DNA of 64,000 bases from an uncultured bacterium (GTDB lineage: Bacteria; Margulisbacteria; WOR-1; CAVSGV01), in assembly GCA_963699255.1 (NCBI GenBank), contig OY969425.1, forward strand, positions 646,070-710,069, given 5' to 3'. Positions within the stretch are counted from its first letter, which is position 1; the number at the start of each line of letters is the position of its first letter. The translations under genes were made by a program, and so were the position numbers. A model generated the notes under the pieces. It worked only from the letters and a program-made list of their open reading frames with translations. It did not search any database and was not told the origin of the DNA. Positions 13,889 to 58,380 of this stretch are shown one piece after another.

Positions 13889-13904
13889 TTTATTTCCTCC
13901 CCGT

Positions 13905-19641: not shown

Positions 19642-19776
19642 TGTGTTTACTTCTACCTCATCCCCTGCCTGCCGGTAGGCAGGCTAGCCCTTCTCCAATC
19701 AATAGGAGAAGGGAAAGGATACTATACTATATCCTCACTTCTCCCTCTCATTCCAGGAGAGGGGTCAGGGGTGAGG

Positions 19777-19817
19777 AAATAAAAAGGGAGATAAGCGAAC
19801 AAGCCCGCTTATCCCCC
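19777..19817 (-). terminator. rho-independent terminator downstream of hpf
   Basis: On the minus strand: GGGGGATAAGCG-loop-CGCTTATCTCCC followed by TTTTTATTT, 16 nt after the hpf stop. Confidence 0.5.
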
Positions 19818-19832
19818 TTTTGGATCAGAGCG

Positions 19833-20411: not shown

Positions 20412-20460
20412 AAATAATCCTCCTGTCTGAATATCTGGATAAATTATATACTGTTTTCGA

Positions 20461-21204
20461 TCAATCCTCAACCGCTCTTGCCAAAGTGAGGGCATAAATG
20501 TTCTTCGCCCCCGCTGCTTTAAGCGCTTTCGAAGCTTCACGCACGGTAGCGCCGGTCGTATAGATATCATCGATCAACAGAACGTTCTTTCCCGTCAGCG
20601 CAGACGCCTGGAAAGCGCCCCTGACGTTCTGGAGCCTTTCCTTTCTTGAGAGTTCGAACTGGGGAGTGACATCCTTTATTTTTTTAAGGGAGCGGCTGTC
20701 GAGATATATTGAACATTGCCTGGAAATTTCCTCCGCAAGCATTTTTGACTGGTTATACCCTCTTTGTTTCTCCCTCTTTGCCGACAGCGGGATCGGGATC
20801 ATAAGATCGATCTCTTTCGCGGGAATGTCCCCGTATCGCAAATAAGAAACGAGGAGCTTGCCGAGAAATGAGGAGAGCGTCCTCTTTCCGTCAAATTTGA
20901 ATTTATGGATCGCCTCCTTCAGCACGCCGTCGTATAACGCGACCGATCTGGCCAGGGTAAAAGGGACGCCTCCCCTGCCGCAGTCCTCGCACAGATCCCC
21001 GGCAAAGTATTTATCCCTGGGCTTTCCGCAGAGCCCGCATATCGGCGGCTTAAGGTAAACGACTTTGTTCACGCAAACATCGCAGATGATCTTCCGGCTT
21101 TTGTTCTTGCATATTACGCAGCATGGCGGGAATATCAGGTCGATAAGATGGTCGAACGGGCTGGGCATGATGAAATTATAGCCGCTTGCTTGAAATTTTG
21201 CCAC
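20461..21204 (-). CDS. comFC: ComF-family competence protein (phosphoribosyltransferase domain with an N-terminal zinc finger)
   Basis: 247 aa; CxxC...CxxC N-terminus and a PRTase motif (VLLIDDIYTTGAT). The start may instead be the ATG at 21168. Confidence 0.8.
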   Translation of the reverse strand: MAKFQASGYNFIMPSPFDHLIDLIFPPCCVICKNKSRKIICDVCVNKVVYLKPPICGLCGKPRDKYFAGDLCEDCGRGGVPFTLARSVALYDGVLKEAIHKFKFDGKRTLSSFLGKLLVSYLRYGDIPAKEIDLMIPIPLSAKREKQRGYNQSKMLAEEISRQCSIYLDSRSLKKIKDVTPQFELSRKERLQNVRGAFQASALTGKNVLLIDDIYTTGATVREASKALKAAGAKNIYALTLARAVED

Positions 21205-21922: not shown

Positions 21923-22681
21923 TTGAACAAATTGAGAAAACCCATAATCGCCGGCAACTGGAAGATGTACAAGACCATAGTGGAATCAGTCTCAACCGCC
22001 ATAGATCTGAAAGCACAGGTCTCCGGAATATCCGACAGGGAAATAGTGATCTGCCCCGTTTTTACCTCTCTCAAATTCGTCTGCGACGCCCTGGTGAATT
22101 CCAACATCAGTGTCGGCGCCCAAGACCTTTTCTGGGAGGACAAGGGAGCGTTCACCGGGGAAATTTCCGCGCCCCAGATAAAAGACACGGGATGCGCCTA
22201 TGTGATAATAGGCCATTCTGAAAGAAGGCAGTATTTCCACGAGACGAACGAAACCGTCGGCAAAAAGACCCTCTCCGCGCTTAAAGCCAGACTGATACCG
22301 ATCGTTTGCGTGGGTGAAACCCTTGCCGAAAGAGAATCCGGAAAAACTTTTTCGGTCATTGAAAAGCAGATCAGGGAAGGGCTCGGCTGCCTCTCGGCGG
22401 AACAGGCGAAAATGATAGTTGTCGCTTACGAGCCGGTCTGGGCCATAGGGACCGGCAAGGTCGCCACCCCCGCACAGGCTGAAGAGGTCCATATCTGCAT
22501 AAGGAAAACCGTCGCGAACATGTTCGGCCAGGACCTGGCGGACGGCATGAGGATACTTTACGGCGGGAGCGTAAAGCCGGAGAACATCGCGGTGCTCATG
22601 GAACAGAAAAATATCGACGGGGCGCTGGTCGGCGGCGCAAGCCTGGATGCAGCGTCTTTCGCGAAAATAATCAAATATTAA
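21923..22681 (+). CDS. tpiA: triose-phosphate isomerase
   Basis: 252 aa; AGNWKM, IGHSERR and VAYEPVWAIGTG motifs. Confidence 0.92.
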   Translation: MNKLRKPIIAGNWKMYKTIVESVSTAIDLKAQVSGISDREIVICPVFTSLKFVCDALVNSNISVGAQDLFWEDKGAFTGEISAPQIKDTGCAYVIIGHSERRQYFHETNETVGKKTLSALKARLIPIVCVGETLAERESGKTFSVIEKQIREGLGCLSAEQAKMIVVAYEPVWAIGTGKVATPAQAEEVHICIRKTVANMFGQDLADGMRILYGGSVKPENIAVLMEQKNIDGALVGGASLDAASFAKIIKY

Positions 22682-22699
22682 ACAGGAAGGAGCAAAAAA

Positions 22700-23665
22700 A
22701 TGACAGCATTTAAAGATCTTGGACTGGTGAACACAAGGGAGATGTTCAAGAAAGCCGTTGACGGTGAGTACGCGATCCCCGCCTACAATTTCAATAACAT
22801 GGAGCAGCTGCAGGCGATCATGATGGCCTGCGCCGAGACAAGCTCGCCGGTCATAATCCAGGTCTCTTCGGCGCGAGAAAGTACGCGAACGCCGACAATG
22901 CTGCGCTACATGGCGCAGGGCGCGGTGGAGATGACAAGGAAAGACCTTAAATCGAACATCCCCATATGCCTGCACCTTGACCACGGCGATACCTTTGAGC
23001 TCTGTGTCTCCTGCATAGAATACGGATTTTCATCAGTGATGATCGACGGAAGCCACCTTCCCTATGAGGAAAATGTCGCGCTGACAAAGAAGGTCGTGGA
23101 ATACGCGCACAAATATGATGTGACCGTGGAGGGAGAGCTCGGGGTGCTCGCCGGGATCGAAGACGCGGTGAAAGCCGAGAAACACACCTACACCCAGCCC
23201 GAAGAGGTCCAGGACTTTGTCAAGAAGACAGGGGTTGATTCTCTGGCTATATCAATAGGAACATCGCACGGCGCGTATAAGTTCAAGCCGGGCACAAAGC
23301 CGGAGATCAGGCTGGACATTCTTCACGTAATAGAAAAAAGGATCCCCGGTTTCCCGATAGTCCTTCACGGCTCTTCTTCCGTACCACAGGATTTGGTGAA
23401 GCAGATCAATTCGAACGGCGGGAAACTGAAAGACGCCATCGGCATACCCGAAACCCAGCTGAGGGAAGCGGCAAAGTCCGCCGTATGCAAGATAAACATC
23501 GATTCTGACGGCCGGCTGGCCATGACCGCGGCGATAAGAAAGGTCTTTGTCGAAAAACCGGAGGAGTTCGACCCCAGGAAATATCTAGGTCCGGCGAGGG
23601 ACGCGCTGAAAGAACTTTACAAGCACAAAAATATCAATGTCCTCGGTTCCGCGGGAAAAGCTTAG
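22700..23665 (+). CDS. fba: class II fructose-bisphosphate aldolase
   Basis: 321 aa; HLDHG and GELG metal-binding motifs. Confidence 0.9.
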   Translation: MTAFKDLGLVNTREMFKKAVDGEYAIPAYNFNNMEQLQAIMMACAETSSPVIIQVSSARESTRTPTMLRYMAQGAVEMTRKDLKSNIPICLHLDHGDTFELCVSCIEYGFSSVMIDGSHLPYEENVALTKKVVEYAHKYDVTVEGELGVLAGIEDAVKAEKHTYTQPEEVQDFVKKTGVDSLAISIGTSHGAYKFKPGTKPEIRLDILHVIEKRIPGFPIVLHGSSSVPQDLVKQINSNGGKLKDAIGIPETQLREAAKSAVCKINIDSDGRLAMTAAIRKVFVEKPEEFDPRKYLGPARDALKELYKHKNINVLGSAGKA

Positions 23666-33134: not shown

Positions 33135-33482
33135 TTATTCTTCTTCTCTCTCTCTTAAATTTTCTTTTTTCGTCCATCCGGATATGTTCACCTGGACCAT
33201 ATTCCCCTCGCTGCCCACCCTCTTTATTTCAGCGCCTTTTTGGCGTAAATATATGTAAGCTCGCCGTGAAATATACGCTCCAAACCTCACCTTGATCCAC
33301 CCGCCCTTTTCATCGATATCCGTTATTTTTATGTACTGGGTCTTCTGCAGAGTATAGACCAACATTGCCTTTACCGAAGGCCCTTTCCTTATATTGGCAT
33401 GATCCCATCGAACAGCCCAGTCCGACGCGAAAACCGGCAGCGAAAGCACTATCAGGATCAGAACGATAAACGCTTTTTTCAT
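33135..33482 (-). CDS. exported SH3b-like domain protein
   Basis: 115 aa from MKKAFIVLILIVLSLPVFA, with a signal peptide. The longer ORF-track extension is a shadow of the pilin gene. Confidence 0.5.
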   Translation of the reverse strand: MKKAFIVLILIVLSLPVFASDWAVRWDHANIRKGPSVKAMLVYTLQKTQYIKITDIDEKGGWIKVRFGAYISRRAYIYLRQKGAEIKRVGSEGNMVQVNISGWTKKENLREREEE

Positions 33483-33608
33483 GAACAATATATACCACCG
33501 GCCGCCCGGCACATCAAGAGCAATATTTGGGTGTTGACATGCTTGCACCGTATAAGATACAATTTCCATAAAAGGTTCACATGTCCCAAAAGAAAGGCGG
33601 GATGAAAA

Positions 33609-34049
33609 ATGAAAAGCAGAGGATTTACCCTTATCGAGCTCCTTATAGTAATGGCGGTCATAGCGATCCTTATCGGCATAGCGCTGCCCAGCTTCAGGGG
33701 AATGCAGCAGGAAGCCAGGAAGACAAGGGCCCAGGGCGATGTAAGGACCATAAAGATGGCGGTGGAGGCATATTACATGGACCACCAGAACACCTATCCC
33801 GCCGAAGCAAATTACCAGGCGACCCTTCAGGCTTCCGTCCCGCAGATACTTACCAGCACCCTGTATGATCCTTTTGGCGCCACTTCCACGACGCAGTATC
33901 TGTATTCTCTGGACACTCACAACCCCGCCACGGCAAATTATTATATTATTTCTTCGGTCAGCCCATCTGGTGTTGCTACCGCTACCGTTAGCACGACCGG
34001 AACCATAACCGCATCGTCCGATGCGATCTACGCTTCGAACGGCCATTGA
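33609..34049 (+). CDS. type IV pilin / T2SS pseudopilin-like protein (prepilin-type N-terminal cleavage/methylation domain)
   Basis: MKSRG|FTLIELLIVMAVIAIL: a class III signal peptide with a G/F cleavage site and E5. Confidence 0.8.
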   Translation: MKSRGFTLIELLIVMAVIAILIGIALPSFRGMQQEARKTRAQGDVRTIKMAVEAYYMDHQNTYPAEANYQATLQASVPQILTSTLYDPFGATSTTQYLYSLDTHNPATANYYIISSVSPSGVATATVSTTGTITASSDAIYASNGH

Positions 34050-34230
34050 TATTAAATGATGCTGAGCTCTAGATCTTAACGCCGGGTTGTTTGGCTTTCT
34101 CGAGCTTCGAGCCCGGCTCCGTATCGCCCTAACTGCCGAGCCTTTAAATTGCAGCACTTTTTTGGCGTTTGAAACGCGAAAATATGATATAATTTTTAAA
34201 TAAGACCCTCAAGAAAGGCCGGATAAAAAA

Positions 34231-42283: not shown

Positions 42284-43321
42284 ATGGGCATGGAAATAAG
42301 AAGAGTTCAGCGTTTTTTCAATAAGATAACCGCTGGCATGAATGCCGGAGTCCATAACGCTCGAGCCGACGCTTATTATAAACAAGGAAAATTGGATAAT
42401 GCGATATTTGAGCGCAAAAAAGCCATAGAGTTCAAACCGAATCGTGTAGAGTTTCACGCCAACTTAGCTTCTCTTTATGAAGAATGTGGAAAATCATATG
42501 AAGCAATAGTTGAATACAATAAAACCTTGGGGGTTGACCCGAATTTTCCGAACGCTAACTACCAGTTAGGCCGTCTTTGTTGCCAGAAAGGAAGATTAAC
42601 TGAGGCGATCCCGGCTCTCGAAAAAGACATTAAGAGCAATCCGGATCACGCGGAAGCTTACGCCTGTTTAGGTATCGTTTATGAACAACAGGGGCCATTA
42701 TACATGGCAATATTTAATTACGAAAAAACCCTGGAGATCGACCCGAATTTTCCGAACATTAACTACCAGTTAGGCCGTCTTTGTTGCCATGAGGGAAGAT
42801 TAACTGAGGCAATCCCGGCTCTCGAAAAAGACATAGAGAGCAATCCGGATCACGCGGAAGCTTACACCTGTTTAGGTCTCGTTTATGGACAATTGGGGGA
42901 ATTTGACGATGCAATATCAAAGCTCAAAAAAGCGATAGAGCTTAAGCCGGATCTTGCAAGACCCCACTTTAATTTAGGTTGTATATATTATCAAAAGGGG
43001 GAATTGTATAAGGCCGAGCTTGAATTTACAATAGCCATCCAAATTGACCCTGATTATTATGAGCCTCCTCTCCAAGTCTCAGGTGCCGGACATTTTGATT
43101 ATGCATACCGTATAAATAATTACCACACGCATCTAACGGAAGATATCATTGCTTCTAAATTTGGAACGGAAAACGCCATGACGATCGAGCCGAGTCATGT
43201 AAATAAACATCGCAATCCGCGAAATGTTTCTGCCGAAGTGTCACTTATTTTAAAAAGAAGAGCGGGTTTAACGGCAAACGGCTCACAGATCGTTCATCGA
43301 TCCAGTGCGGTAACCGCCTAG
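42284..43321 (+). CDS. tetratricopeptide repeat protein
   Basis: Multiple 34-aa TPR units (AEAYACLGIVYEQQG, NYQLGRLCC... repeated). Confidence 0.7.
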   Translation: MGMEIRRVQRFFNKITAGMNAGVHNARADAYYKQGKLDNAIFERKKAIEFKPNRVEFHANLASLYEECGKSYEAIVEYNKTLGVDPNFPNANYQLGRLCCQKGRLTEAIPALEKDIKSNPDHAEAYACLGIVYEQQGPLYMAIFNYEKTLEIDPNFPNINYQLGRLCCHEGRLTEAIPALEKDIESNPDHAEAYTCLGLVYGQLGEFDDAISKLKKAIELKPDLARPHFNLGCIYYQKGELYKAELEFTIAIQIDPDYYEPPLQVSGAGHFDYAYRINNYHTHLTEDIIASKFGTENAMTIEPSHVNKHRNPRNVSAEVSLILKRRAGLTANGSQIVHRSSAVTA

Positions 43322-44092
43322 GTCGATGGTCACGAATTTGTAGCCCAGATCCCTGAACTTCCTGTCTATCCTGTCCGCTATCCCGTCCTCGACAAGCGAC
43401 GGCAGATCGCTCTTGTCCACTTCTATCCTGGCAAGATTCCCGTGATGGCGGACCCTTACCTGCGTCAAACCCAGGCTTCTCAGGAATTTCTCGCCTCTAT
43501 CGATCCTTTTCAATATCTCCTTCGTTATCCTTGTTCCGCAAGGTATCCTAGACGCCAGGCATGCAAGCTGGGGTTTGTTCCAGGTGGGGAGTTTGAGTTC
43601 CTTTGAAAGTTTCCTGATGTCCTCTTTGGTGAAACCGGCTTCCCTCAACGGGCTTCTTATTCCATGTTTTTTTGACGCGTTCTCTCCCGGCCTGAAATCG
43701 GACAGATCGCTCACGTTAGAGCCGTCAGCGATGTATTTTATGCCTTCTTTCTTGGCGACCGCGCGGAGTTGCGAAAAAAGCTCATCCTTGCAGTAGTAGC
43801 AGCGCTCGGGCGGGTTTGAAAGGAACCTTTCATCATTGAATTCTTTTGTGCGGATAAGCTTATGTCTAATCCCGAGATTCCTGGCGAATTTTACGGCTGC
43901 CCTGCCCTCGACTTGCGGATACGTTTCAGACCCGGCGATGACGGCCAGCACCCTGCCGCCCAGAACATCATGAGCCACCTTCAGGAGGAGGCTTGAGTCA
44001 ACGCCGCCGGAAAATGCAACAAGGAGACTCCCGTATTTCCCGAGAATCTCCTTGAGCTTATCGTATTTCGATCGAATTACCGAGAAGGACAC
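43283..44092 (-). CDS. larE: PP-loop ATP pyrophosphatase, LarE-like sacrificial sulfur transferase family
   Basis: SGGVDSS PP-loop; matches TIGR00268-like architecture. No larA/B/C in the window. Confidence 0.7.
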   Translation of the reverse strand: MSFSVIRSKYDKLKEILGKYGSLLVAFSGGVDSSLLLKVAHDVLGGRVLAVIAGSETYPQVEGRAAVKFARNLGIRHKLIRTKEFNDERFLSNPPERCYYCKDELFSQLRAVAKKEGIKYIADGSNVSDLSDFRPGENASKKHGIRSPLREAGFTKEDIRKLSKELKLPTWNKPQLACLASRIPCGTRITKEILKRIDRGEKFLRSLGLTQVRVRHHGNLARIEVDKSDLPSLVEDGIADRIDRKFRDLGYKFVTIDLGGYRTGSMNDL

Positions 44093-47335: not shown

Positions 47336-48297
47336 ATGGAAAGTTTTTCAGCTAGCTCCAGTACGGACCTGTCTATGGTCTTTTTCACTCTCACCGCTCT
47401 GGCAAAATCGGTCGCCACTATCTTCCCGTTCTGCATCCCGACAAGCTTGTTCCTGCTGCCTTTGAGGAGCAGCTCGACGGCCGCAGATCCGAGCTTGCAG
47501 GCAAGCGCCCTTGATTCTGCGGACGGGGACCCGCCTCTTTGAATGTGCCCGAGCACCGTTACCCGGACGTCCACTTTAAGTTTCTTTAAAATGTACTCCC
47601 CGAGAACATGCCCCCTGCACACGCCCTCCGCGGTCACGATAATGCTGCTGTGCTTTCCCCTGTCCATGCCTTCCCTCAGCCTTTTGCAGACCCTGTCAAA
47701 ATCGCATTTTACTTCCGGCACCAGTATTATCTCCGCTCCCGCTCCAAGCCCCACTTCAAGAGCGATGAAGCCGTTGTCCCGGCCCATCACCTCGATGATG
47801 AATATCCTCTCGTGGGACGCCGCGGTGTCGCGGATCTTGTCTATCGCGTCAAGGGCCGTATTGACCGCCGTATCGAACCCTATCGTCGAATCAGTGCACG
47901 GAATGTCATTGTCAATGGACGCGGGAACCGCCATCGAAACGATGCCAAATTCTTTTTGAAGGTCGTACGCGCCGCCCAGAGAGCCGTTGCCGCCTATGAT
48001 TATCAAAGCGTCTACATTGTGGTCCTTAAGCTGCCTTGCCGCGATCCTCCTGAAGGATTTCTTCTTGAATTCCGGGCATCGGACGGTATGAAGTATGGTT
48101 CCTCCCCTGTTCAATATACCTGAAACGGATTTAAGGTCCATAGAGTGGATATCGCCGCCGATAAGCCCCGCATATCCGCGATCTATGCCCATAACACGGA
48201 GCCCGTGAAAGATCGCCGTTCTTACGACAGCCCTTATAGCAGTGTTCATTCCGGGGGCATCTCCTCCCGGGGTAACGACGCCGATTGTTTTTATCAT
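47332..48297 (-). CDS. pfkA: ATP-dependent 6-phosphofructokinase
   Basis: 321 aa; GGDGS, MGR and the GDAPGMN N-terminal motif. Confidence 0.9.
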
Positions 48298-49733
48298 ACA
48301 GACACCTTCCCTTCGGTAACTATCTTGATCGAATGATAGATTATATCAAGCATTCCGCTTAAATCCACGTTCGAAATGCAGAACGGAGGCATAATAACGA
48401 TAATGTCCGAGAGAGGCCGTATTATCAGACCGCGCTTCCTCGCTTCCATTATCACATTGATGCCGATCTTTTCGGACACTCGGTATTCTTTCTTAGTTCT
48501 CTTATCCTTTACAAGCTCTATTCCCGCAAGGAAGCCGCACTGGCGCACGTCTCCTACATGATTAAGCTTGCGGAATCCCCTGAGCTTTTCGGCCAGCAAT
48601 CTTATCTTTGGCTGCAACTTTTGCAGCGTTCTCTCTTTACTGAAAACATCTATCGACGCTATTGCCGCGGCGCACCCGAGGGGATTCCCGGTGTAGGTGT
48701 GTCCGTGATAAAAAGTCCTGTGGCTCTCCTGCGTGCCAAGGAAAGCCTTGAATATTTTTTCCGTTGTCAGGGTCGCGGCAACAGGAAGATACCCACCGGT
48801 CAGGCCCTTAGCGACGATCATTAGATCGGGCTTCACGCCTTCGTGCTCACAGGCGAACATTTTGCCGGTCCTTCCAAATCCCATCGCAACTTCATCGACT
48901 ATCATCAGAATATTGTATTTCGTGCAAAGTTTTCTTATCCCCTTAAGATACCCTTTCGGATACACAAGAATTCCCGCCGCCGCCTGGACAAGCGGCTCCA
49001 CTATCATCGCGGCGATCTCCTTGTGATGAGCTTTCATTATCGTTTCAACCGCTTTCAAACACTTCATCTCGCACTTCGCATCCCTGCCCGCCGAAGCCTT
49101 GGCGTAGGCGGGTCGCATCTCACATCTGTAGCAATACGGTGTCGGCGCCTTGAACGATCTGAAAAGCAGCGGTTTATACATCTTATGGAACAGGTCGATC
49201 CCCCCGACCGAAACGGACCCGATGGTGTCCCCATGATATGCGTTAACCAGAGTTAAGAACTTTGTCTTGAATTTGGGATTTTGAAATTGTTTAGGATTTC
49301 GGATTTCGGATTTCGGATTTTTTCTCTGCTGCCAATATTGGAACGCCATCTTTAACGCTATCTCGACGCCTTCCGATCCCGAATCAGAATAAAAAACCCT
49401 GGTCAACCCTTTCGGCGCAAGTTCGATGATCTTTTCGGCAAGCAAGGTTGCCGGAACATTCGATAATCCGAGCATCGTCGAATGCGCGATCTTGTCGATC
49501 TGTTTTTTTACCGCCCTGTCGATGGCCGGATGCCTGTGGCCGTGAACATTCACCCAGAGGGAAGAAACGCCGTCGATGTACCATTTGCCGTCAATGTCCT
49601 TGATCCACGCGCCCCGGCCTTCCTCAATGATAAGCGGCTCTTCTTTCATCCAATCCCGCATCTGAGTGAAAGGATGCCAGATATACTTATGATCAATATC
49701 TTTCAATATATTTTGTTTCATGGTTGTCTCCAA
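48294..49733 (-). CDS. bioA: adenosylmethionine-8-amino-7-oxononanoate aminotransferase (carries a ~20 aa in-frame insertion encoded by (TCCGAAA)x4)
   Basis: Class III aminotransferase; PLP-lysine region DEVAMGFGRTGKMFA. The insertion KNPKSEIRNPKQFQNPKFKTK has no counterpart in typical BioA. Confidence 0.9.
   Translation of the reverse strand: METTMKQNILKDIDHKYIWHPFTQMRDWMKEEPLIIEEGRGAWIKDIDGKWYIDGVSSLWVNVHGHRHPAIDRAVKKQIDKIAHSTMLGLSNVPATLLAEKIIELAPKGLTRVFYSDSGSEGVEIALKMAFQYWQQRKNPKSEIRNPKQFQNPKFKTKFLTLVNAYHGDTIGSVSVGGIDLFHKMYKPLLFRSFKAPTPYCYRCEMRPAYAKASAGRDAKCEMKCLKAVETIMKAHHKEIAAMIVEPLVQAAAGILVYPKGYLKGIRKLCTKYNILMIVDEVAMGFGRTGKMFACEHEGVKPDLMIVAKGLTGGYLPVAATLTTEKIFKAFLGTQESHRTFYHGHTYTGNPLGCAAAIASIDVFSKERTLQKLQPKIRLLAEKLRGFRKLNHVGDVRQCGFLAGIELVKDKRTKKEYRVSEKIGINVIMEARKRGLIIRPLSDIIVIMPPFCISNVDLSGMLDIIYHSIKIVTEGKVSV
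49293..49324. repeat. heptanucleotide array (TCCGAAA)x4 (coding strand) inside bioA
   Basis: Plus strand AGGATTTCGGATTTCGGATTTCGGATTTT. Confidence 0.6.
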
Positions 49734-49796
49734 AACGGAAAGCGTTATGCGGTAGCGTCCTCATTCCCCACACGCCACCCCTGAACACAAGACGCT

Positions 49797-50456
49797 TTAC
49801 ATCAATTTCTCCAATATCTTCTGCGCCCTGATCTGCTTCAAAAGCTCCTTGAAAGAGCTTTTCGCGCGGATCATGCCTATCACCGGTACGCCGGAAAGCT
49901 CCTCGATGACCTGTTTATTGGTCTTCTGGGAAGGCTCCCTGCCGTTAAAGCCGTTCATGATGATGCCGGCGATCCTGATCTTCCTTTTCCTCAGCGCATC
50001 AATCGTCATCAAAGTATGATTAATGGTGCCAAGCCCTGCCCTGGTTATTATGATCGCCGGAATACCCAGGTCTTTTATCATATCCGCGATATAATAGTCC
50101 CTTTTAACAGGCGCAAGCGCCCCGCCGAGGCCTTCCACAAAGACCAGTCCCCGGCCGTTCTTGAGTTTTTGGACGTTCTTTTTGATCCTGTTCATATCGA
50201 TGCTGATCTTTTCGGCCTTCATCGCCGCGTAAGGGGATAAAGGCTGCCTGAATTTCACCGGATTGATCGAATCGATGGTGTCCTTGAGGTCCAATTTTGC
50301 TCTGTAAAATCGCGCGTCCTCGATCCCTCCGCAGGATATCGGCTTGCTTATGCCGATCATAAAGCCGTTTGACTGCGCGACATATCCCAGCCCCGCTGTT
50401 ATGAACGTTTTGCCGACCTCGGTGTCTGTACCCGTAATGAAATACGCTTTAGACAA
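49797..50456 (-). CDS. bioD: dethiobiotin synthetase
   Basis: 219 aa; P-loop GTDTEVGKT. Confidence 0.9.
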   Translation of the reverse strand: MSKAYFITGTDTEVGKTFITAGLGYVAQSNGFMIGISKPISCGGIEDARFYRAKLDLKDTIDSINPVKFRQPLSPYAAMKAEKISIDMNRIKKNVQKLKNGRGLVFVEGLGGALAPVKRDYYIADMIKDLGIPAIIITRAGLGTINHTLMTIDALRKRKIRIAGIIMNGFNGREPSQKTNKQVIEELSGVPVIGMIRAKSSFKELLKQIRAQKILEKLM

Positions 50457-50551
50457 AATATTCCCTCGTCTCGGAGCCTGAGGCTGAACGCCTCGGCTCC
50501 ATGTTATTATGATAGGTCCAACTAGATCTAGTTACGCCCATATGACAAATT

Positions 50552-50598
50552 GGAACCGCGACTTTCCTTACCGCCTCTGGCGGTAGTCGCAGATTCCT
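50552..50598. repeat. REP-like GGAACC palindrome with a nested inner hairpin, immediately after the bioF stop
   Basis: GGAACCGCGACT..TACCGCCTCTGGCGGTA..AGTCGCAGATTCC. Confidence 0.45.
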
Positions 50599-51755
50599 AG
50601 CCAAGAAATTCACCTTTCATTTCATCAAGCAGGTCCGCAAGCTTATTGATATCTTCTTTTGTGTGTTTGGCCGTTACGCTCAATCTGAGGCGCGAAGTCC
50701 CCTCAGGCACGGTCGGCGGCCTGATAGCGGAAAGGAGTATCCCTTTATCATACAGGAACTCCGATGCTTTCATGGCTTTCTTGGCATCCCCGACGAATAT
50801 CGGTATTATCTGGGTGGTGGATCCCATGGTATTCAGTGCCATCCGGGCCAGCCTTTTCTTAAGGTACGCGATGTTGTTCCATATGGCCCTGCGGAAAGAG
50901 TCGTCCTTCCTTATTATTTCCAGCGCGGCTATGGATGCCGCGGTAACGGCAGGCGGCAGCGCGGTGGTATATATGAAAGACCTGGCCTTGTTCTTAAGAT
51001 ATTCGATAAGTTTGCTCGTCCCGGATACGAATCCGCCCAGCGACCCGACCGCCTTGCTCAGCGTCCCCATTATGATCATGTCCCTTTTTGCCGCGGGATA
51101 CTTCATCTCAAGAGGCAGGATGCCCGTCGAATGAGCGGTATCAATCATCAGCATGGCGTTATACTTTTTCGAAAGGGCGGCAAGCTCATACAGCGGCGCC
51201 ACGTCGCCGTCCATGCTGAACACATGGTCGGTCACGATAAGTATCCTCCGGAAGTTATTCGCCTTAGCCAGTATCTTCTCAAGCCGGTACATGTCCCTGT
51301 GGGGATATACCAGCAGTTTCGCCCCCGAAAGCCTGGCGCCGTCTATGATGCTCGCGTGGTCGAGGCGGTCTATGATGACGGCATCGTCTTTCCCGACAAG
51401 CGCCTGTATGGTCCCCATGTTAGCCATGTAACCGCTGGGAAATACTATGGATGCTTCCGTGTTCTCGTACGCCGAGTATCTCGTATTCCAGTTCTTCATG
51501 TATGGCGTAGTTGCCGGAGACAAGCCGCGATGCTCCCGCGCCGACGCCGTGCGTCTTAAGGACTTCTATCGCCTTTTCGATCACTTTCGGATGGCTGGAA
51601 AGGCCAAGGTAGTCGTTCGAGCAGAAATTTATCAGCTGCTTCCCCTTAATGACGACCTTTGAATCAAGCCCTTCTTCTATGGCTTTCAGCGTCCTGTATA
51701 GATCGTTCTTTTTTATTTCATTAAGCTCCTCGTTGATGAAATCCATCCTTGCCAT
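50597..51755 (-). CDS. bioF: 8-amino-7-oxononanoate synthase, interrupted by a single-base frameshift near 51470
   Basis: The N-terminal ORF 51420..51755 (…SGNYAIHEELEYEIL) and the C-terminal ORF 50597..51523 (…AYENTEASIVFPSGYMAN…PLP lysine GTLSKAVG) lie in adjacent frames. Together they form a complete BioF. Confidence 0.8.
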
Positions 51756-51756
51756 G

Positions 51757-52734
51757 TCAGTTCGCCACCTCCAATCCCATATCTTTGATCATCTGCAGGT
51801 CAACCTCCGGGGAATTCCCGGACGTCGTTAGATAATTCCCAAGTAAAGTCATATTGGCTCCAGCTAAATACATCAAGGGCTGGAGTCCGCCGAGCGAAAG
51901 CTCACGTCCCCCAAAAATACCGATGTCCTTGCCGGGCATCACGAACCTGAATGTGGCGACCAGTCTCAAAACTTCGAGGGGCGGCATCACCTTTAACTTT
52001 TCAGCTCTTGTGCCCCTGACAGGGTTTAAGATATTGATAGGTACGGATTCCGGGTCCAGATCTTTCAGCTGGAAGGCCAGCTCGACCCTCTGCTCTAGCG
52101 ACTCGCCGAGGCCGAAAATGCCGCCACAGCAGATGCGCAACCCCGTGCTTTTCGCCGCTCTGACGGTGGCGACGCGTTCCTCGAATTTGTGCGTGGTGCA
52201 GACCTTGCCGAAGAAGCTCTTCGCGGCTTCAAGGTTGTGATGGAACTTCCTGAGTCCCGCGGCCTTCAACCTTTTGAGCTGCTCTCCTGTAAGTATCCCG
52301 ATGGATGCACAGTGGTCCATATTAAGCTTCTTGTCGATCTTTGAGACCGCCCGGCATATCTCATCTATCTCCTTTTCGGACTTGATGCCCCTACCCGCCG
52401 TGACTATGCCGAAACACGTTGCACCGTTCTTTTTGCTTGCCTGCGCGCTCTTGTACATCTCGCCGGATGATATCAGCGGATAAACATCGATGGCGGTTTT
52501 GTGATGTGCTGATTGCGAGCAGAACATGCAGTTCTCGGAACATTTGCCTGATTTGGCGTTTACGATCGAGCACAGTTTGACCTTGTTCCCCTTGAAGTGC
52601 CGACGGATCTCATTCGCGGCAAAAATAAGCTGAAAAGTCTCGCTTTCCGGACGCTTGATAAGATAGAGGGCTTCCTCGAAGGATATCGGGGAGCCTTTTA
52701 TCGCTTTTTCCTGCAGACGGGCAATTTTTGACAT
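51757..52734 (-). CDS. bioB: biotin synthase (radical SAM)
   Basis: CSENCMFC radical-SAM cluster motif and YNHNLE-like region. Confidence 0.9.
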   Translation of the reverse strand: MSKIARLQEKAIKGSPISFEEALYLIKRPESETFQLIFAANEIRRHFKGNKVKLCSIVNAKSGKCSENCMFCSQSAHHKTAIDVYPLISSGEMYKSAQASKKNGATCFGIVTAGRGIKSEKEIDEICRAVSKIDKKLNMDHCASIGILTGEQLKRLKAAGLRKFHHNLEAAKSFFGKVCTTHKFEERVATVRAAKSTGLRICCGGIFGLGESLEQRVELAFQLKDLDPESVPINILNPVRGTRAEKLKVMPPLEVLRLVATFRFVMPGKDIGIFGGRELSLGGLQPLMYLAGANMTLLGNYLTTSGNSPEVDLQMIKDMGLEVAN

Positions 52735-52764
52735 AACCAGAGGATTATATCATAATAGAAAGAT

Positions 52765-53580
52765 ATGAAAAAACACCTGGTGATGCTCCACGGCTTCGGC
52801 TGTGACTCAAGGGTATTCTCATCGATCGGAACGAAACTGTCAAAAGACCATGACGTCCTTATGGTGGACCTGCCCGGCCACGGCCAGACCAAGGAAAAGT
52901 TCGGCGATTTTTCTTTCTCCGCTTACACGATACTTCACGCGCTCGACCAATATCTGGGCGAGCCTTACTCTCTTCTCGGCTGGTCGATGGGAGGACAGAT
53001 CGCGCTAGAAATGTACAAGCAAACAAAGAAGAGATGGGAGATGAGAGATGCGAGATGCGAAAAGCAAGAGTCTAAATGCAAATGCGGGCACGATCACGAA
53101 CATGAACATGCGCACAGCGATATCACATCGCTCATCCTCGTTTCATCCACGCCAAAGTTCGTGGCTTCAGACGATTTCCCATTCGGAATGAACAAGGCCG
53201 TTTTCAGCAAGTTCAGAAAGGGTCTAAAAGATCACCCTGAAAAGACAATGAACGATTTTTACAACCTTGTATTCTCTGACAACGAGGATGCGTCCTTGTT
53301 TCTATCCAGCATCCAAACCCAAACCCCATCCCAACAGACCCTTCTAGAATGCTTGAAAAGTTTCGAGCGCTTCGACGGAAGGAACATTCTTCCCGCGGTG
53401 AACGTCCCCACCCTGATAATGGCCGGCGACGGCGATGAGGTGATCGACCCGAAGGCGTCGCTTTATCTGTCGCAGGAAATAAAGAGCAGCTCATTGAAGA
53501 TGTTCAGGGGCGCCGGACACGCGCCGCATCTTACAAGAGAAAAGGAAATGATCGATGAGATCTCAAAGTTCCTTGGATAA
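52765..53580 (+). CDS. bioH: alpha/beta hydrolase, BioH-like pimeloyl-ACP methyl ester esterase, with a His/Cys-rich insertion
   Basis: GWSMGG nucleophile elbow. Divergent from bioB and adjacent to bioC. An insertion ~KKRWEMRDARCEKQESKCKCGHDHEHEHAH is partly encoded by (GAGATGN)x4. Confidence 0.6.
   Translation: MKKHLVMLHGFGCDSRVFSSIGTKLSKDHDVLMVDLPGHGQTKEKFGDFSFSAYTILHALDQYLGEPYSLLGWSMGGQIALEMYKQTKKRWEMRDARCEKQESKCKCGHDHEHEHAHSDITSLILVSSTPKFVASDDFPFGMNKAVFSKFRKGLKDHPEKTMNDFYNLVFSDNEDASLFLSSIQTQTPSQQTLLECLKSFERFDGRNILPAVNVPTLIMAGDGDEVIDPKASLYLSQEIKSSSLKMFRGAGHAPHLTREKEMIDEISKFLG
53029..53064. repeat. heptanucleotide array (GAGATGN)x4 inside the bioH-like CDS (in frame)
   Basis: AGAGATG GGAGATG AGAGATG CGAGATG. 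Confidence 0.6.
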
Positions 53581-54359
53581 GAACAAGATAGCCCGGTCCT
53601 TTTCAAGATCGGCCGAGACTTACGACCTGTTTTCCCGGCTGCAAAAAGACCTTGCGAACGATCTGGTAAAGTCCGTAGCATCCATCAATATCTCCCCGAA
53701 GAACATACTTGATATCGGCACGGGAACAGGTAATGTTGCATTCCTGCTGCATGAAAGATACAGGGACGCCATTATCACCGGCTGCGACATAGCTCCTGGA
53801 ATGATAAAGAAAGCCGCCAACAACAACCCTTATGAGAACGTGGCTTTCGAGGTGGCTGACGCCGAGAACCTGCCTTTTACGGATAAGAAGTTCGATCTTG
53901 TAGTATCCAGCACGACATTTCAATGGGTCGAGGACCTTTCCAGGGCGTTCTCGGAGGCGAAAAGAGTTCTCATCCCCGGCGGGTACTTCGCATTCGTTAC
54001 TTTCGGGCCAAAAACCCTGTCGGAACTTAAACGGAATTACAAGATCGCCTTCGGTGAAGATGCGGATCATCTGCACAAGTTCAATAACATGCGCGAGATA
54101 CAGGCGATGCTGAAAACGGCCGGTTTTGAGGCTTTAAAATTGAACTCCGACACGCTGAGGGAATTCTACCCTGATTTCAGGACGTTCTTCAGGTCGCTGA
54201 AGGGGCTCGGAGCGCTGAACGCCTCGCCGGACCTGCCGAAAGGTCTAAGGTCACCGGACAAAGATGAACGCGCTGATCAAGTATTACGAGACCAACAGCA
54301 GGATAGGGAACCGGGTTTATGCGACGTTCGAGGTCATCAGAGTGCTCTGCAGGGCGTGA
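53555..54359 (+). CDS. bioC: malonyl-ACP O-methyltransferase, with a C-terminal frameshift near 54250
   Basis: ILDIGTGTGN motif I. The conserved C-terminus (MNALIKYYETNSRIGNRVYATFEVIRVLCRA) is in the +1 frame and ends at 54359. The ORF-track frame reads through to 54370. Confidence 0.8.
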
Positions 54360-54373
54360 TCAGAACTTGACCT

Positions 54374-54781
54374 CTATCGCCCTGGGCGGGCACGGAAGAA
54401 CGCACAGTTCGCACGCGATGCATTTTTCCGGATCGAACTCCACCTCATCGTTTTCCTGTCGTTTATATAAAGCGCTCCCACAGGGCACTGAGCGACGCAC
54501 GCCCCGCACTGAGTGCATTTGTCCCAGTTGACCACGATGTCTTTTTCCAGCGGCTGGACATTCACCCCTTGTTTCTTCAGGTAATCGAGGCCTTTTTTGA
54601 TCTCGGCTTCCTCTCCCGTCAGCTCCAGCACCATCAGCCCCTCGTCATCCGGCATTATGTTCGCCCGCAGTATATTGAAAGAGAGCCCGTAATCCTTGAT
54701 GAGCCTGTAAACTATCGGCTGGTCTATCTTTTCTTTTGGGAACTTGAGCACTATCCTTTTTGATGTTGTCATAATTATCAT
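54374..54781 (-). CDS. NIL-domain / 4Fe-4S ferredoxin protein (homolog of the methanogen homocysteine-biosynthesis partner protein)
   Basis: MetN-C-like NIL domain, then CTQCGACVAQCP ferredoxin motif. Always paired with COG1900. Confidence 0.75.
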   Translation of the reverse strand: MIIMTTSKRIVLKFPKEKIDQPIVYRLIKDYGLSFNILRANIMPDDEGLMVLELTGEEAEIKKGLDYLKKQGVNVQPLEKDIVVNWDKCTQCGACVAQCPVGALYINDRKTMRWSSIRKNASRANCAFFRARPGR

Positions 54782-54816
54782 CTCCTTAATTGGTCATTGA
54801 GTCATTGTTAATTGTG

Positions 54817-56034
54817 TCATTGTTTAACAGGCCGCTCGTTCAGCGGTTTGAACTTTACTCCATCCTCGACGCCTGGGAGTTTTGCGACAGGCTCCGTTAA
54901 AGTAAAATCGCCCTTCTTGATCCAGCTTTTCAATGTCTCGGCTATCTTAAGTGCCTTCGAATAGCTTGAAATCCCGGAAGTAGGCACTTTCTTTCCTTTT
55001 ATTTCGATCTCCCCCGACTTAAGCTGCTCGTAATTAACTTCGCCCACGACTTCCGGCTTGCCGTTCGGATACGCGTCGCTGTAATCAACTATCGCCGCAT
55101 AAATATCTTTGTCCTTTATCGCCGCATATTTCAATGTCTCCTCGCTCAATATCGGGATGGGTATGCCGATTCCAACGTTCAGCGTTGTCCCGTATCCGAC
55201 GAATGAAACTCCCTTAAGCCATTCGGGAGTCATCTGCTTCAGATCGCCGATAACGGCGAGAGTTCCGGCGGGCCTTTTCGGCACTCCGTTCTCAAGCCTC
55301 GGGGCGCCCGGATTGTGCTGCGTACCCTGCCACGCGACATATCCGACCCCTCCGCCGAGGAATATCTTTGTGCCGATCCCGACCGTTTTGTAAAAAGGAT
55401 CGTTCAGCAGAGGCGAAAGCTGTCCCGCGCTGCAGTAGTTCGCGTTACCGATGTTCGGTTTAAGGATGCCGAGATAAGTGTATATCGTTTTATCCGAAAG
55501 ATTTACCGCGACATTATAGTTCTGGTAAGCGTTGCGGAAGTTGAACAGGACCGCTTCATTGACATCCTTCAGGTTCAGCAGTGTCTTAAGCTCTCTCTTC
55601 GGATAGCAGTCGGTGCCGTAAGCCGAAGCTTCAAGCACCACATCCTTGCCCGCGACAAGCTCTTCGATGACGTGTCCTCCTCCGTACTTGAACTCGCCGG
55701 GATGGACGCTGTTCCTGGGGTCGTCATCCGGCATTGCCGTAGCGCCGAGATAGAAATCGACCGCCGCAAAACCGGTATAGACCGGCACTCCATTCAGCGT
55801 CGCCCTGCCTCCGCCCAGCTTTATTTTCGGGCGGGTGTGTCCGACGTTCATATAAGCACCGGACGAACACATCGGGCCGAACGTCGCCGTCGTTACGACG
55901 TCCACTTCCTTCGCGGCCTTCTCGATCCCTTTTTTCTCGATAAGATCAAGCAGTTCCTCCTTTGTAACGATCACCGCCTGGCCTTTTTTTATCTTCTCAT
56001 TTATTTCCTGCAACGTTTTTGCCATTTTTACCAA
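54817..56034 (-). CDS. COG1900/DUF39 homocysteine biosynthesis protein (aspartate-semialdehyde sulfurtransferase-like)
   Basis: 405 aa DUF39 architecture with conserved Cys residues. Adjacent to the NIL-ferredoxin gene and cysK. Confidence 0.75.
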   Translation of the reverse strand: MVKMAKTLQEINEKIKKGQAVIVTKEELLDLIEKKGIEKAAKEVDVVTTATFGPMCSSGAYMNVGHTRPKIKLGGGRATLNGVPVYTGFAAVDFYLGATAMPDDDPRNSVHPGEFKYGGGHVIEELVAGKDVVLEASAYGTDCYPKRELKTLLNLKDVNEAVLFNFRNAYQNYNVAVNLSDKTIYTYLGILKPNIGNANYCSAGQLSPLLNDPFYKTVGIGTKIFLGGGVGYVAWQGTQHNPGAPRLENGVPKRPAGTLAVIGDLKQMTPEWLKGVSFVGYGTTLNVGIGIPIPILSEETLKYAAIKDKDIYAAIVDYSDAYPNGKPEVVGEVNYEQLKSGEIEIKGKKVPTSGISSYSKALKIAETLKSWIKKGDFTLTEPVAKLPGVEDGVKFKPLNERPVKQ

Positions 56035-56045
56035 CTCCTTTTCTA

Positions 56046-56996
56046 TTAACTGAACAACTCGGTTGAGAGATATCGCTCCCCGGTATCCGGAAGCACAACA
56101 ACTATCATCTTGCCCTTGTTCTCATTTCTTTTCGCGACCTGGAGCGCGGCCCAGACCGCCGCTCCACTGGAGATACCCGCCAGAATCCCTTCCTTCTTTG
56201 CAAGCTCCCTGGCCGTTGCAAAGGCGTCATCCGCGGAAACAGTGACTATTTCATCGATTATCTTTCGGTTCAAAACCTCCGGAACAAAGCCGGCGCCTAT
56301 TCCCTGTATCCTGTTCGGTCCGGGCTTGCCCCCGGAAAGCACCGGCGATTCCTTGGGCTCGACTGCGATGATCTTTATGTTCTTTTTCTTCTTTTTAAGC
56401 ACTTCCCCTACCCCTGTGATCGTTCCGCCCGTCCCGACCCCGGCGATGAAGATATCCACTTTTCCTCCCGTATCCTTCCATATCTCAAGCGCCGTTGTTT
56501 TCCTGTGTATTTCGGGATTTGCCGGATTCTTGAACTGCTGCAGCAGCAGATATTTTCTGTCAGACTCAACGACTTCTTCTGCCTTTTCGATCGCTCCCCT
56601 CATGCCCTTTGACCCCTCGGTCAGGATCAATTCAGCCCCGAACGCTTTGAACAGATTTCTTCTTTCGATGCTCATCGTCTCAGGCATCGTGAGTACCAAG
56701 CTGTATCCCCTCGCCGCCGCGACGAACGCGAGAGCAATCCCCGTGTTTCCGGAGGTCGGCTCGATCAATATAGTGTCCTTTTTGATCTTGCCGGCCTTTT
56801 CCGCCGCGTCTATCATAGCCACGCCGATCCTGTCCTTCACCGAACTTGCGGGATTAAATGATTCGAGCTTCGCGATAACGGCAGCGGGAAGCCCCTCTGC
56901 CATCCTGTTCAACCTTACAAGCGGAGTGTTCCCCACCAACTGCGTAATGTCTTTTGCTATTTTTCCCATATATCCATCCCTCCTCCAGGCCGCCAC
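56046..56996 (-). CDS. cysK: cysteine synthase (O-acetylserine sulfhydrylase)
   Basis: PLP-lysine motif SVKDRIG and a GTGGT glycine loop. Confidence 0.85.
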
Positions 56997-57434
56997 CTAA
57001 ATATAATACTCCGAGAACTTGTTTTCATTTTTCTTTTGCCTGTCCCTTAAGTCGGCAAAAGTCAGAGAATCAATTTTTGCGGCTATGTATTTCCCTATAT
57101 CGCAGAAAACATCCCTTAAGACGCATCTGGACGAATAGCTGCATGTCTCCTTGTGGTTGACGCACGCTATCGGCTCGACCGGACCCTCAATATATCTTAT
57201 CACCTGTCCCATCGTGATATCTTTCGGGCCCCTTGATAAGACATAGCCGCCTTTTTGGCCCCGAAAGCTCTTAACGAACCCGCCTTTTTTCAGTTGGAGC
57301 AGGATCTGCTCCAGGAACTTCACCGGGATATCCTGCCTCCTGGCAATCTCATCCGAAGATTGAAGCTTGCCCTGGTTGATGCTCAGGTCGAGTATTACTT
57401 TCAGCGCGTAATCACCTTTAAATGTTATCTTCAT
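56997..57434 (-). CDS. Rrf2-family transcriptional regulator (CymR/IscR-like)
   Basis: N-terminal wHTH (DYALKVILDL...SSDEIARRQDIPVKFLEQILLQLKKGGFV). Confidence 0.85.
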   Translation of the reverse strand: MKITFKGDYALKVILDLSINQGKLQSSDEIARRQDIPVKFLEQILLQLKKGGFVKSFRGQKGGYVLSRGPKDITMGQVIRYIEGPVEPIACVNHKETCSYSSRCVLRDVFCDIGKYIAAKIDSLTFADLRDRQKKNENKFSEYYI

Positions 57435-57488
57435 AATTAATCCCTACTAACTTGATGGGAATTATATACTATTATCGGAGGTTGTCAA
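57434..57488 (-). promoter_or_regulatory. sigma70-type promoter (TTGACA-N16-TATAAT) overlapped by an inverted repeat ATATAATTCCC-N12-GGGATTAATTAT; candidate Rrf2 autoregulatory operator
   Basis: On the minus strand, -35 TTGACA lies at 57488-57483 and -10 TATAAT at 57466-57461. The IR spans 57468-57434 and reaches the start codon. Confidence 0.5.
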
Positions 57489-57504: not shown

Positions 57505-58380
57505 TTACTGGATCGCCATCCCGAGGAATTGTCTCACGAGCAGCCCGATCACAAAGCTTAATGCAGCGACGCCCATACTGATGGACGCCATCTCAAGGAA
57601 CCTGGTCATGAATGATATCTCTTTTACGACCGAATAATAGAAGGCGAACAAAAATATCATTATTATCGCGCCAAGCAATGTCAGCCCCAGGCAAGTCAGA
57701 TAATTCGACACCAGGAGATACGGAAGAATAAGCACAATAACCACGCAAACATATGTCAGCGTGGTATAGAAAGATGCCTTGAACGGGTCCCTCGCCTCTC
57801 CCTCTGTCTTTGTCGACAGATATTCGGAGGCCCCCATGGATAGAGAGGCCGCGATCCCCGTGATCAAACCCGCGACGCCTACTAACTTCGCGTTCTGTAA
57901 AGCAAATGTAAGCCCCGCCAGAGTACCGGTCAGCTCTACAAGCGCGTCGTTAAGGCCGAGTACGATGGAGCCGATGTATTTCAACTTTTCTTCATCGATC
58001 ATTGCGACAAGCTCATGTTCGTGTCTGGTCTCATCGTCGCGGATATTAAGGGCTTCGGGTATCACATTTGAAATCTTTTCATACGCCTTCTGGGCGCCCT
58101 TTTCTCCGTTTTCCATAAGCTTTATCCCGAACGTGATCCCGAAGATGCATGAAACGATCAAGTAGAACCAGTATTTGATCCGGTCCATCTTAACATCGAT
58201 CCCGGAGTGTCCTTTCCATATATTATAATGACGAAGCTCATCATCGGAGATCCTGCGCAGGACATCATCGTTCCGTTTATCCTTGCTTAGCTGTGCAAGC
58301 TTTCTGTAAAAAAGATGCTCTGTGATCTCGTTTTTCTGGAAACCAAGAACGATCCCTCTGGTCCTTGCATCAAGCGCCAT
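57505..58380 (-). CDS. VIT1/CCC1-family iron/manganese transporter with an N-terminal ferritin-like (rubrerythrin-type) domain
   Basis: ExxH ferritin-like motifs N-terminally, then a VIT1 membrane domain (GLNDALVELTGTLAGL). Confidence 0.8.
   Translation of the reverse strand: MALDARTRGIVLGFQKNEITEHLFYRKLAQLSKDKRNDDVLRRISDDELRHYNIWKGHSGIDVKMDRIKYWFYLIVSCIFGITFGIKLMENGEKGAQKAYEKISNVIPEALNIRDDETRHEHELVAMIDEEKLKYIGSIVLGLNDALVELTGTLAGLTFALQNAKLVGVAGLITGIAASLSMGASEYLSTKTEGEARDPFKASFYTTLTYVCVVIVLILPYLLVSNYLTCLGLTLLGAIIMIFLFAFYYSVVKEISFMTRFLEMASISMGVAALSFVIGLLVRQFLGMAIQ

Follow-up and report, generated by a model that had tools for sequence, protein, structure and literature searches.

A predicted Rrf2-autorepressed operon for sulfide entry into cysteine and homocysteine in an uncultured WOR-1 bacterium

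Four genes for the incorporation of sulfide into amino acids and for its control lie together in the DNA of an uncultured bacterium of the Margulisbacteria (WOR-1; CAVSGV01; GenBank assembly GCA_963699255.1). The stretch analysed, referred to as the window, is 64,000 nucleotides (nt) long and spans positions 646,070 to 710,069 of contig OY969425.1. On its minus strand, from 57488 down to 54360, the genes read rrf2 - cysK - hcyBio - NIL/ferredoxin (NIL/Fd), with intergenic gaps of 27, 20 and 44 nt (Table 1). The operon probably serves the conversion of sulfide to both cysteine and homocysteine and appears to be autorepressed by its own Rrf2-family regulator at a conserved dyad; a break in its ferredoxin gene is likely an artefact. 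The enzymes, the gene neighbourhoods and the operator that carry this reading are taken up first, then the regulator and the ferredoxin gene, together with the alternatives that each of them raises.

Table 1. Features of the rrf2 operon and its promoter (window coordinates).
Feature	Position	Strand	Remarks
-35 hexamer TTGACA	57483..57488	-	promoter scan
-10 hexamer TATAAT	57461..57466	-	promoter scan; TATAAT or TATACT in orthologous loci
Predicted Rrf2 operator, 27-base-pair (bp) dyad TAATTCCCA-tcaagttag-TAGGGATTA	57438..57464	-	overlaps -10 box and likely transcription start
rrf2, Rrf2-family regulator of 145 amino acids (aa)	56997..57434	-	PF02082; C91, C98, C104, Asp8, C-terminal Y-Y-I
cysK, O-acetylserine sulfhydrylase A	56046..56969	-	start taken at ATG 56969, preceded by GGAGGAGGG
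hcyBio (COG1900a/DUF39), predicted L-aspartate-semialdehyde sulfurtransferase catalytic subunit, 402 aa	54817..56025	-	PF01837
NIL + 2x[4Fe-4S] ferredoxin subunit (MA1822-like)	54360..54772	-	interrupted by a 1-nt deletion
Frameshift site, one G missing	54443..54445	-	AGG-TG here, AGG-GTG in relatives (GGG to GG)

The gene order and strand proposed in a first-pass annotation of this DNA are borne out by profile matches of the products. Its promoter, TTGACA-16 nt-TATAAT, also stands: it agrees with the consensus at 12 of 12 positions and is the sole match of this quality that a promoter scan finds in the region. The distance from the -10 box to the rrf2 start codon is 26 nt. Window positions 58398-55239 are 100% identical to an independent Logan assembly of run ERR10755942, and the promoter, rrf2, cysK and the 5' part of hcyBio can thus be taken as solid sequence. 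Control by S-adenosylmethionine, S-box or T-box elements is ruled out by the absence of Rfam matches at gathering thresholds in the whole window and by the 26 nt between the -10 box and the start codon.

CysK scores 485 bits with TIGR01139 (cut-off 351) and 328 bits, below the cut-off of 394, with the CysM model. The product of the third gene matches PF01837 over its full length (profile positions 1-349 of 349) with 503 bits against a cut-off of 26. This family, formerly DUF39/COG1900, bears the present Pfam name 'HcyBio, homocysteine biosynthesis enzyme, sulfur-incorporation'. The exact 402-aa product sits in a 90% cluster with proteins that the Joint Genome Institute (JGI) names L-aspartate-semialdehyde sulfurtransferase (abbreviated L-ASST). 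In 22 of 22 orthologues the three cysteines C53 (in GPMCSSG), C140 and C198 are kept without change; C53 stands at the place of Cys54 of Methanosarcina MA1821 and C140 is taken for Cys131, an equivalence by position only, with no direct MA1821 alignment behind it. In MA1821, the partner of MA1822, Cys54 is essential and Cys131 is conserved (PMC12068725). Profile searches find neither a CBS domain nor a Fer4 domain or ferredoxin insert in HcyBio, and no solved structure of it was found. The fourth gene encodes a separate protein with a NIL domain (71 bits) and both Fer4 motifs, which are split over two reading frames. The PF01837 match, the separate NIL + 2x[4Fe-4S] protein, the JGI cluster and the invariant cysteines together assign the COG1900 and NIL/ferredoxin pair as L-ASST, as the first-pass annotation had supposed for the two distal genes. 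Its further observations, that asd is present in the window and a metY-type gene is not, hold as well: Asd (7593-8618) scores 492 bits against a cut-off of 223, and no homologue of MetX, MetY or MetW is found in the 64 kilobases (kb) of the window. The identity of cysE (4749-5357) is also confirmed.

The aspartate-semialdehyde pathway is not new to bacteria, and the earlier statement that it is known mainly from methanogens is outdated. It has been proven genetically in Desulfovibrio: in Desulfovibrio alaskensis the synthesis of homocysteine depends on DUF39 (PMC4045070, 2014), and D. vulgaris Miyazaki requires DUF39, NIL/ferredoxin and COG2122, with homoserine being no intermediate (PMC5764234, 2018). 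The same route has been predicted in Dehalococcoides (PMC5764234). The operon pair resembles the known systems (MA1821/MA1822; Dde_3007, DvMF_1464, DVU2938 + DvMF_0262) in its N-terminal cysteine (C53 here, Cys54 in MA1821), in a second conserved cysteine, and in having as partner a separate small NIL + 2x[4Fe-4S] protein. The Desulfovibrio DUF39 catalytic protein lacks a CBS domain, as HcyBio does here. The genetic arrangement differs: the D. vulgaris genes lie apart from one another and COG2122 is also required (PMC5764234), whereas here the two genes are adjacent and joined with cysK and a regulator.

The neighbourhoods of related regulators were compared at 80 loci centred on Rrf2 orthologues of 45-75% identity, from Margulisbacteria, Omnitrophota and a few Desulfobulbaceae, Elusimicrobia and Spirochaetes metagenome-assembled genomes. 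Identity to the window protein is 75% at best, in unclassified genomes of this kind; the named relatives, at 58-67%, belong to the Margulisbacteria. Same-strand genes following rrf2 were clustered and the clusters named with Pfam, and counts were taken from the 63 loci whose downstream sequence reaches 3 kb or more. A gene for sulfur assimilation, cysteine or homocysteine follows rrf2 at 53 of these loci, and cysK at 41. hcyBio follows at 21 loci and a MetY-type sulfhydrylase, usually with MetX and MetW, at another 21; both together are found at none (0/63). Phosphoadenylyl sulfate (PAPS) reductase, usually with a PiT permease and ThiF/JAB, follows at eight. A NifS-type gene lies near this Rrf2 at few loci, and headship of an isc/suf operon is not the pattern. 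In sister genomes (WOR-1, Saganbacteria and many Omnitrophota), MetY-MetX-MetW operons occupy the same slot after rrf2-cysK. They likewise make homocysteine from sulfide, but by unrelated proteins and chemistry, with a pyridoxal phosphate enzyme and an acetyltransferase acting via O-acetylhomoserine, so that homoserine is needed. The swapping of two homocysteine routes in one slot behind rrf2-cysK lends independent support to the COG1900 pair's function and to a role of the regulator in sulfur amino-acid metabolism. At several Omnitrophota loci (L035, L037, L043, L049, L054-L056) the NIL/ferredoxin gene is followed by genes for a LarE-like PP-loop sulfur transferase, a NifS-type desulfurase and BirA. 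The window, too, encodes a LarE homologue (336 bits), at 43283-44092, 10 kb from the operon.

The inverted repeat that had been described at the rrf2 promoter is present, and it is conserved in other genomes, but it is imperfect. In the window dyad, TAATTCCCA-N9-TAGGGATTA, seven of nine arm positions are complementary, and a gapless repeat finder reports no inverted repeat at this promoter. Judged from the window sequence alone the dyad is weak: with as many as three mismatches allowed, the consensus pattern is matched once in the window against 0.29 matches expected by chance. Its conservation is what makes it a candidate operator. Loci of the Margulisbacteria type carry TAATCCCTA-N9-TAGGGATTA, which is perfect in L005 and L006; Omnitrophota loci carry TATACTCTA-N9-TAGAGATTA, and Desulfobulbaceae loci AGTCTAC-N9-GTAGAGT. 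The arms thus vary among lineages while their symmetry is kept (CCCTA/TAGGG, CTCTA/TAGAG, GTCTAC/GTAGA). The core CTA-N9-TAG lies upstream of rrf2 at 47 of the 80 loci, compared with 3.9 +/- 1.8 (maximum 10) in dinucleotide shuffles. A weight matrix built from the conserved sites (29 bits; training median 36) finds one strong site in the 64-kb window, at the rrf2 promoter, with 18-22 bits; the next best has 7.5. Sites of at least 14 bits lie within 200 nt upstream of rrf2 at 57 of 80 loci, with just nine others in about 800 kb. Neither the matrix nor the pattern search finds further sites in the window, including upstream of cysE and asd.

The position of the dyad relative to the promoter is also conserved. 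It always starts inside the -10 hexamer, and TTGACA (at most one mismatch) lies 16-18 nt upstream of that hexamer at 42 of 53 sites, whereas the dyad may be separated from the start codon by anything between 0 and 118 nt. This fixed placement against the -35 and -10 boxes and variable distance to the start codon indicate an element that acts in the DNA and not in the transcript. The geometry, with the dyad over the -10 box, fits a block of RNA polymerase, i.e., autorepression, and the dyad accompanies rrf2 whatever genes follow downstream. From this conserved operator on the -10 box, Rrf2 is very probably the repressor of its own operon. A variant operator, TAATCACTA-(18 nt)-TAGAG, is found at the Omnitrophota loci L019, L031, L033, L044, L052, L053, L059, L068, L076, L078 and L084, the other loci having a 9-nt spacer. 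At L041:5900-6000, GGTTGAACCTACGA is repeated four times in tandem between the operator and the rrf2 start codon.

The regulator belongs to the Rrf2 family (PF02082, E-value 3.5e-36, 125 bits; TIGR00738, 121 bits against a cut-off of 73). It falls below the curated cut-offs for CymR (NF047409, 96 against 195 bits), IscR (TIGR02010, 93 against 207) and NsrR (57 against 182), and its best solved relatives are Thermincola IscR (4CIC, 86 bits) and then Bacillus subtilis CymR (2Y75). Its three cysteines form a C-x6-C-x5-C triad in the loop after the wing. A C-x(5-9)-C-x5-C motif is found after the wing in 120 of 120 homologues, and KGDYA with Asp8 in 116 of them. A C-terminal [YFW]-x-[IV]-COOH is present in all 120 (Ile-final in 119) and at all 80 loci; the linker that leads up to it differs among them in both length and sequence. 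An AlphaFold2 model (mean pLDDT 85) has a confident core and a poorly defined cysteine loop; residues 142-145 are disordered, with pLDDT below 50. An exhaustive search of 1.84 billion cluster representatives gave 143 full-length nearest representatives (50%-identity clusters), which were scored with the cysteine motif anchored on the wing motif. Triad and tail occur together in 77 of them, the triad without the tail in 48, the tail without the triad in 13, and neither in five. The combination is therefore not rare among the nearest Rrf2 representatives. No literature on such a hybrid, or on a link between Rrf2 and the aspartate-semialdehyde route, was found in a search outside of which most subscription journals lie.

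By the curated cut-offs the regulator is neither CymR nor IscR, and its sequence joins three cluster-type cysteines with a CymR-like Y-x-Ile tail. Cysteine triads ligate an Fe-S cluster in IscR and NsrR, with Asp8 as the fourth ligand in NsrR (PMC9338935, PMC9218516). The regulator has the three cysteines in the same loop as IscR (Escherichia coli, Thermincola potens) and NsrR, and an acidic residue at position 8 matches the NsrR ligand. A palindromic operator and an autoregulated first gene of the operon, both predicted here, are further shared features. The neighbours differ, being sulfur amino-acid genes rather than isc/suf or nitric oxide detoxification genes, and IscR-type proteins of E. 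coli lack the Y-x-I tail. CymR of B. subtilis and Staphylococcus aureus is likewise an Rrf2-family repressor of cysteine metabolism that is functionally tied to cysK. The CymR operator consensus differs from the operator predicted here. The description of the regulator as CymR-like, given by the first-pass annotation, holds for the shared aromatic-x-Ile tail; it does not extend to the score, nor to the three cysteines and Asp8. B. subtilis CymR has no cysteine at the triad columns (2Y75), which are invariant in this clade, and binds no Fe-S cluster (PMC9338935). Also different from CymR is the presence of cysK in the operon of the regulator, with predicted autoregulation.

The tail of S. aureus CymR, ...GYMFYI, enters the active site of CysK with an affinity of 25 nM, its terminal Ile carboxylate replacing substrate (bioRxiv 10.1101/2024.09.19.614015). 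The tail here, ...SEYYI, shares the aromatic-x-Ile ending, and docking to CysK is predicted from this motif. The peptide contacts of S. aureus CysK appear to be kept in the CysK of the operon, as judged by eye rather than from a computed alignment: the TSGNTG loop, the Met and Ile in GMRGAI, and QQF. The classical cysteine synthase complex depends on another tail, the C-terminal Ile of CysE, which normally docks CysE into CysK. CysE of the window ends ...SMLKK, without this Ile. The classical complex therefore seems unlikely in this organism, and the Rrf2 regulator may be the only docking partner of CysK.

The regulator could instead be an IscR-type sensor of Fe-S homeostasis, which would carry a cluster and tie the supply of cysteine and homocysteine to Fe-S demand without docking to CysK, the Y-x-I tail having another function or none. 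Thermincola IscR as best solved relative, the invariant cysteines and the NifS-type desulfurase (cluster c14) in some Omnitrophota operons are in keeping with such a sensor, and the 48 representatives with cysteines and no tail imply that the tail is dispensable in this fold. We regard this as unlikely. The usual neighbours are cysK, metY/X/W, hcyBio and sulfate-assimilation genes, not Isc/Suf scaffold genes; all 120 homologues keep the tail although the linker preceding it varies; and the score with the IscR equivalog model is less than half of its cut-off.

The fourth gene is a NIL/4Fe-4S ferredoxin, as first annotated, but it is not a single open reading frame (ORF) ending at 54374, and the frameshift in it had been missed. 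In the ORF ending at 54374, the first CxxCxxCxxxCP motif is followed by an unrelated tail and the stop. An overlapping ORF, 54360-54518, carries the second motif, CIACELCVLPCP, together with the conserved C-terminus ...PRAIEVKF, and the true end of the ferredoxin is 54360. Intact relatives are 137-140 aa long, 91-93% identical, and read ...DRKTM-R/K-VEFDPEKC. At a syntenic locus, L001, with 86% nucleotide identity, AGGGTGGAG stands in place of the AGGTGGAG of the window, which places the missing G at the site listed in Table 1. A 32-nt insert at 54788-54819, between the hcyBio stop codon and the ribosome-binding site of the ferredoxin gene, contains CAATGAC twice and is absent from L001. Programmed frameshifting was considered and is rejected as unlikely; the -1 slip that it would need, at G-ATG-AGG-T, has no slippery heptamer, and there is no homopolymer for transcriptional slippage.

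The frameshift is most likely an assembly indel error, and the gene probably intact in the organism. Three lines of evidence argue for this. Over the 28 codons that follow the shift, the comparison with L001 shows six synonymous and no non-synonymous changes, and the stop codon is kept. One-base shifts are also found in other genes, which with that of the ferredoxin makes at least five in 64 kb: a 5.6-kb comparison with L001 shows them in bioC (~54255) and bioF (~51477), cysS (~4690-4710) lacks its first 23 residues because a run of A5 has become A4, and the gene for a histidine kinase (~9030-9081) is split into two overlapping ORFs. The cysS gene is essential. Finally, Logan contig L004 of run ERR10755942, identical to window 53505-51480, ends 3 nt from the bioF indel. 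De Bruijn contigs end in this way where reads disagree, and the reads thus seem to branch at this indel.

If the frameshift were real, the ferredoxin would be truncated after its first cluster, the aspartate-semialdehyde route would be broken or impaired, and the organism would use imported methionine or another route. The deletion is, after all, present in the sequence as given. The sole database copy of the product of this strain is the 135-aa truncated form, and neither of two versions of the repaired protein is in a collection of 15 billion proteins. The Logan contigs agree 100% with the window in all overlaps, which speaks against a generally sloppy assembly. Both of them, L003 and L004, stop before the ferredoxin site, and exact look-ups of HcyBio, the truncated ferredoxin and the bioH-like protein gave no contig spanning it. 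A real lesion is nevertheless quite improbable given the purely synonymous changes beyond the shift, the same type of lesion in four further genes that include cysS, the contig break beside one of the indels, and a site that is not slippery and so offers programmed frameshifting as no way out. Apparent pseudogenes of an assembly with such frameshift errors should not be taken as biology.

It has also to be considered whether the conserved dyad is a feature of an extended promoter or of the initially transcribed DNA, or is bound by some other factor, Rrf2 acting elsewhere. The left arm overlaps the -10 hexamer, and part of the conservation must then belong to the promoter; the imperfection of the window copy points the same way. 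We find this very unlikely, since the dyad is symmetrical, has a fixed 9-nt spacer and reaches 20 nt past the -10 box, its arms co-vary between phyla, and it travels with rrf2 regardless of the downstream genes. Its 27 bp are also within the length of the operator fragments in solved Rrf2 complexes, 23 to 39 bp (PMC9338935). That the COG1900 and NIL/ferredoxin pair thiolates some other aldehyde, like COG1900d MMP16/ComF for coenzyme M, is highly improbable: COG1900 does comprise several subfamilies with different substrates, and L-ASST partly substitutes for MMP16 (PMC12068725), but HcyBio matches the MMP16 model TIGR03287 (COG1900d) only partially (119 bits against a cut-off of 364), has no ferredoxin insert, has a separate NIL/ferredoxin partner as in MA1822 and DvMF_0262 (PMC5764234), keeps the Cys54-equivalent cysteine invariant, and is mutually exclusive with metY-metX-metW in one operon slot.

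Several points weigh against the reading of the locus as an autorepressed operon for both amino acids. The window operator is degenerate, its 18-22 bits being well below the training median, 23 of the 80 loci are without a clear operator, and one Omnitrophota sub-clade has the variant with an 18-nt spacer. DNA binding, cluster content and CysK docking of this Rrf2 clade are all deduced from sequence. A canonical methionine route may coexist elsewhere in the 1.77-Mb genome, of which the 64-kb window was covered. To these are added the missing repaired ferredoxin and the agreement of the Logan contigs, described above.

With autorepression at the dyad as the preferred reading, the operon would most likely work as follows. 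The sigma-70-type promoter would give a single transcript, rrf2-cysK-hcyBio-NIL/Fd. CysK would convert O-acetylserine and sulfide to cysteine, and HcyBio with the NIL/2x[4Fe-4S] ferredoxin would form homocysteine by the reductive addition of sulfide to the aspartate semialdehyde that Asd supplies. As CysK and the sulfurtransferase would both take sulfide, the operon can be seen as a unit for direct sulfide entry into both sulfur amino acids. Feedback by methionine on the enzyme itself may come from the NIL domain (PMC12068725). When sulfur is sufficient, an Rrf2 dimer on the 27-bp dyad, over the -10 box and transcription start, would shut the strong promoter and so repress its own operon. The bound dimer would probably be loaded with a cluster and possibly clamped by CysK. 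The three invariant cysteines and Asp8 most likely hold the Fe-S cluster, and the free C-terminal Tyr-x-Ile tail most likely docks, like that of CymR, in the active site of CysK. When sulfide or cysteine is short, O-acetylserine would accumulate and displace the tail from CysK, and/or the cluster would be lost, and the repressor would leave. CysK and the sulfurtransferase would then be made together. The gene identities, the promoter, the conservation of operator and gene order and the conserved residues are established by the sequences; repression, both signals, the enzyme activities and the origin of the frameshift in the assembly are inferred.

Some features of the surrounding DNA may be recorded. 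The gene that immediately precedes the rrf2 promoter, on its strand, encodes a VIT1/CCC1-type iron transporter (57505-58380). L007 has a homologue as well, some 1 kb upstream of rrf2, and the association may be a link to iron or a coincidence. On the other side, a biotin cluster (48294-54360) converges on the operon, with bioA, bioD, bioF and bioB on the minus strand and a bioH-like esterase gene and bioC on the plus strand. In L001, the stop codons of bioC and the ferredoxin gene abut, leaving no room for a terminator. Elsewhere in the window, long Arg-rich ORFs of odd composition (10389-12359, 21992-22984 and 33135-34157) are possibly wrong-strand readings or frameshifted genes, and two stretches (12986-13905 and 19641-20461) are poor in ORFs; Rfam finds nothing in any of these five intervals.

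The metabolic enzymes of this operon are already known, and automatic annotation gives them their names; its regulatory part has comparative genomics as its sole support. The natural swap of two homocysteine routes at one operon slot independently backs the function assigned to the COG1900/NIL pair. What is new is a testable regulatory model for uncultivated phyla, with a defined 27-bp operator and a regulator clade that has two recognisable sensing features. We suggest, tentatively, that the regulator may stand for a large uncharacterised Rrf2 subfamily, to which the 77 of 143 representatives with triad and tail would belong, and could be a two-input sensor, with an IscR/NsrR-type Fe-S cluster for sulfide, iron or redox state and a CymR-type, CysK-docked tail for O-acetylserine, which gates direct sulfide assimilation into cysteine and homocysteine in Margulisbacteria, Omnitrophota and other anaerobes. 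Bacillus CymR, with the tail only, and E. coli IscR, with the cluster only, might then be reduced versions of it. If true, such a dual sensor would join the two Rrf2 paradigms that are known best, IscR and CymR, and would explain how strict anaerobes match sulfide uptake to demand without riboswitches.

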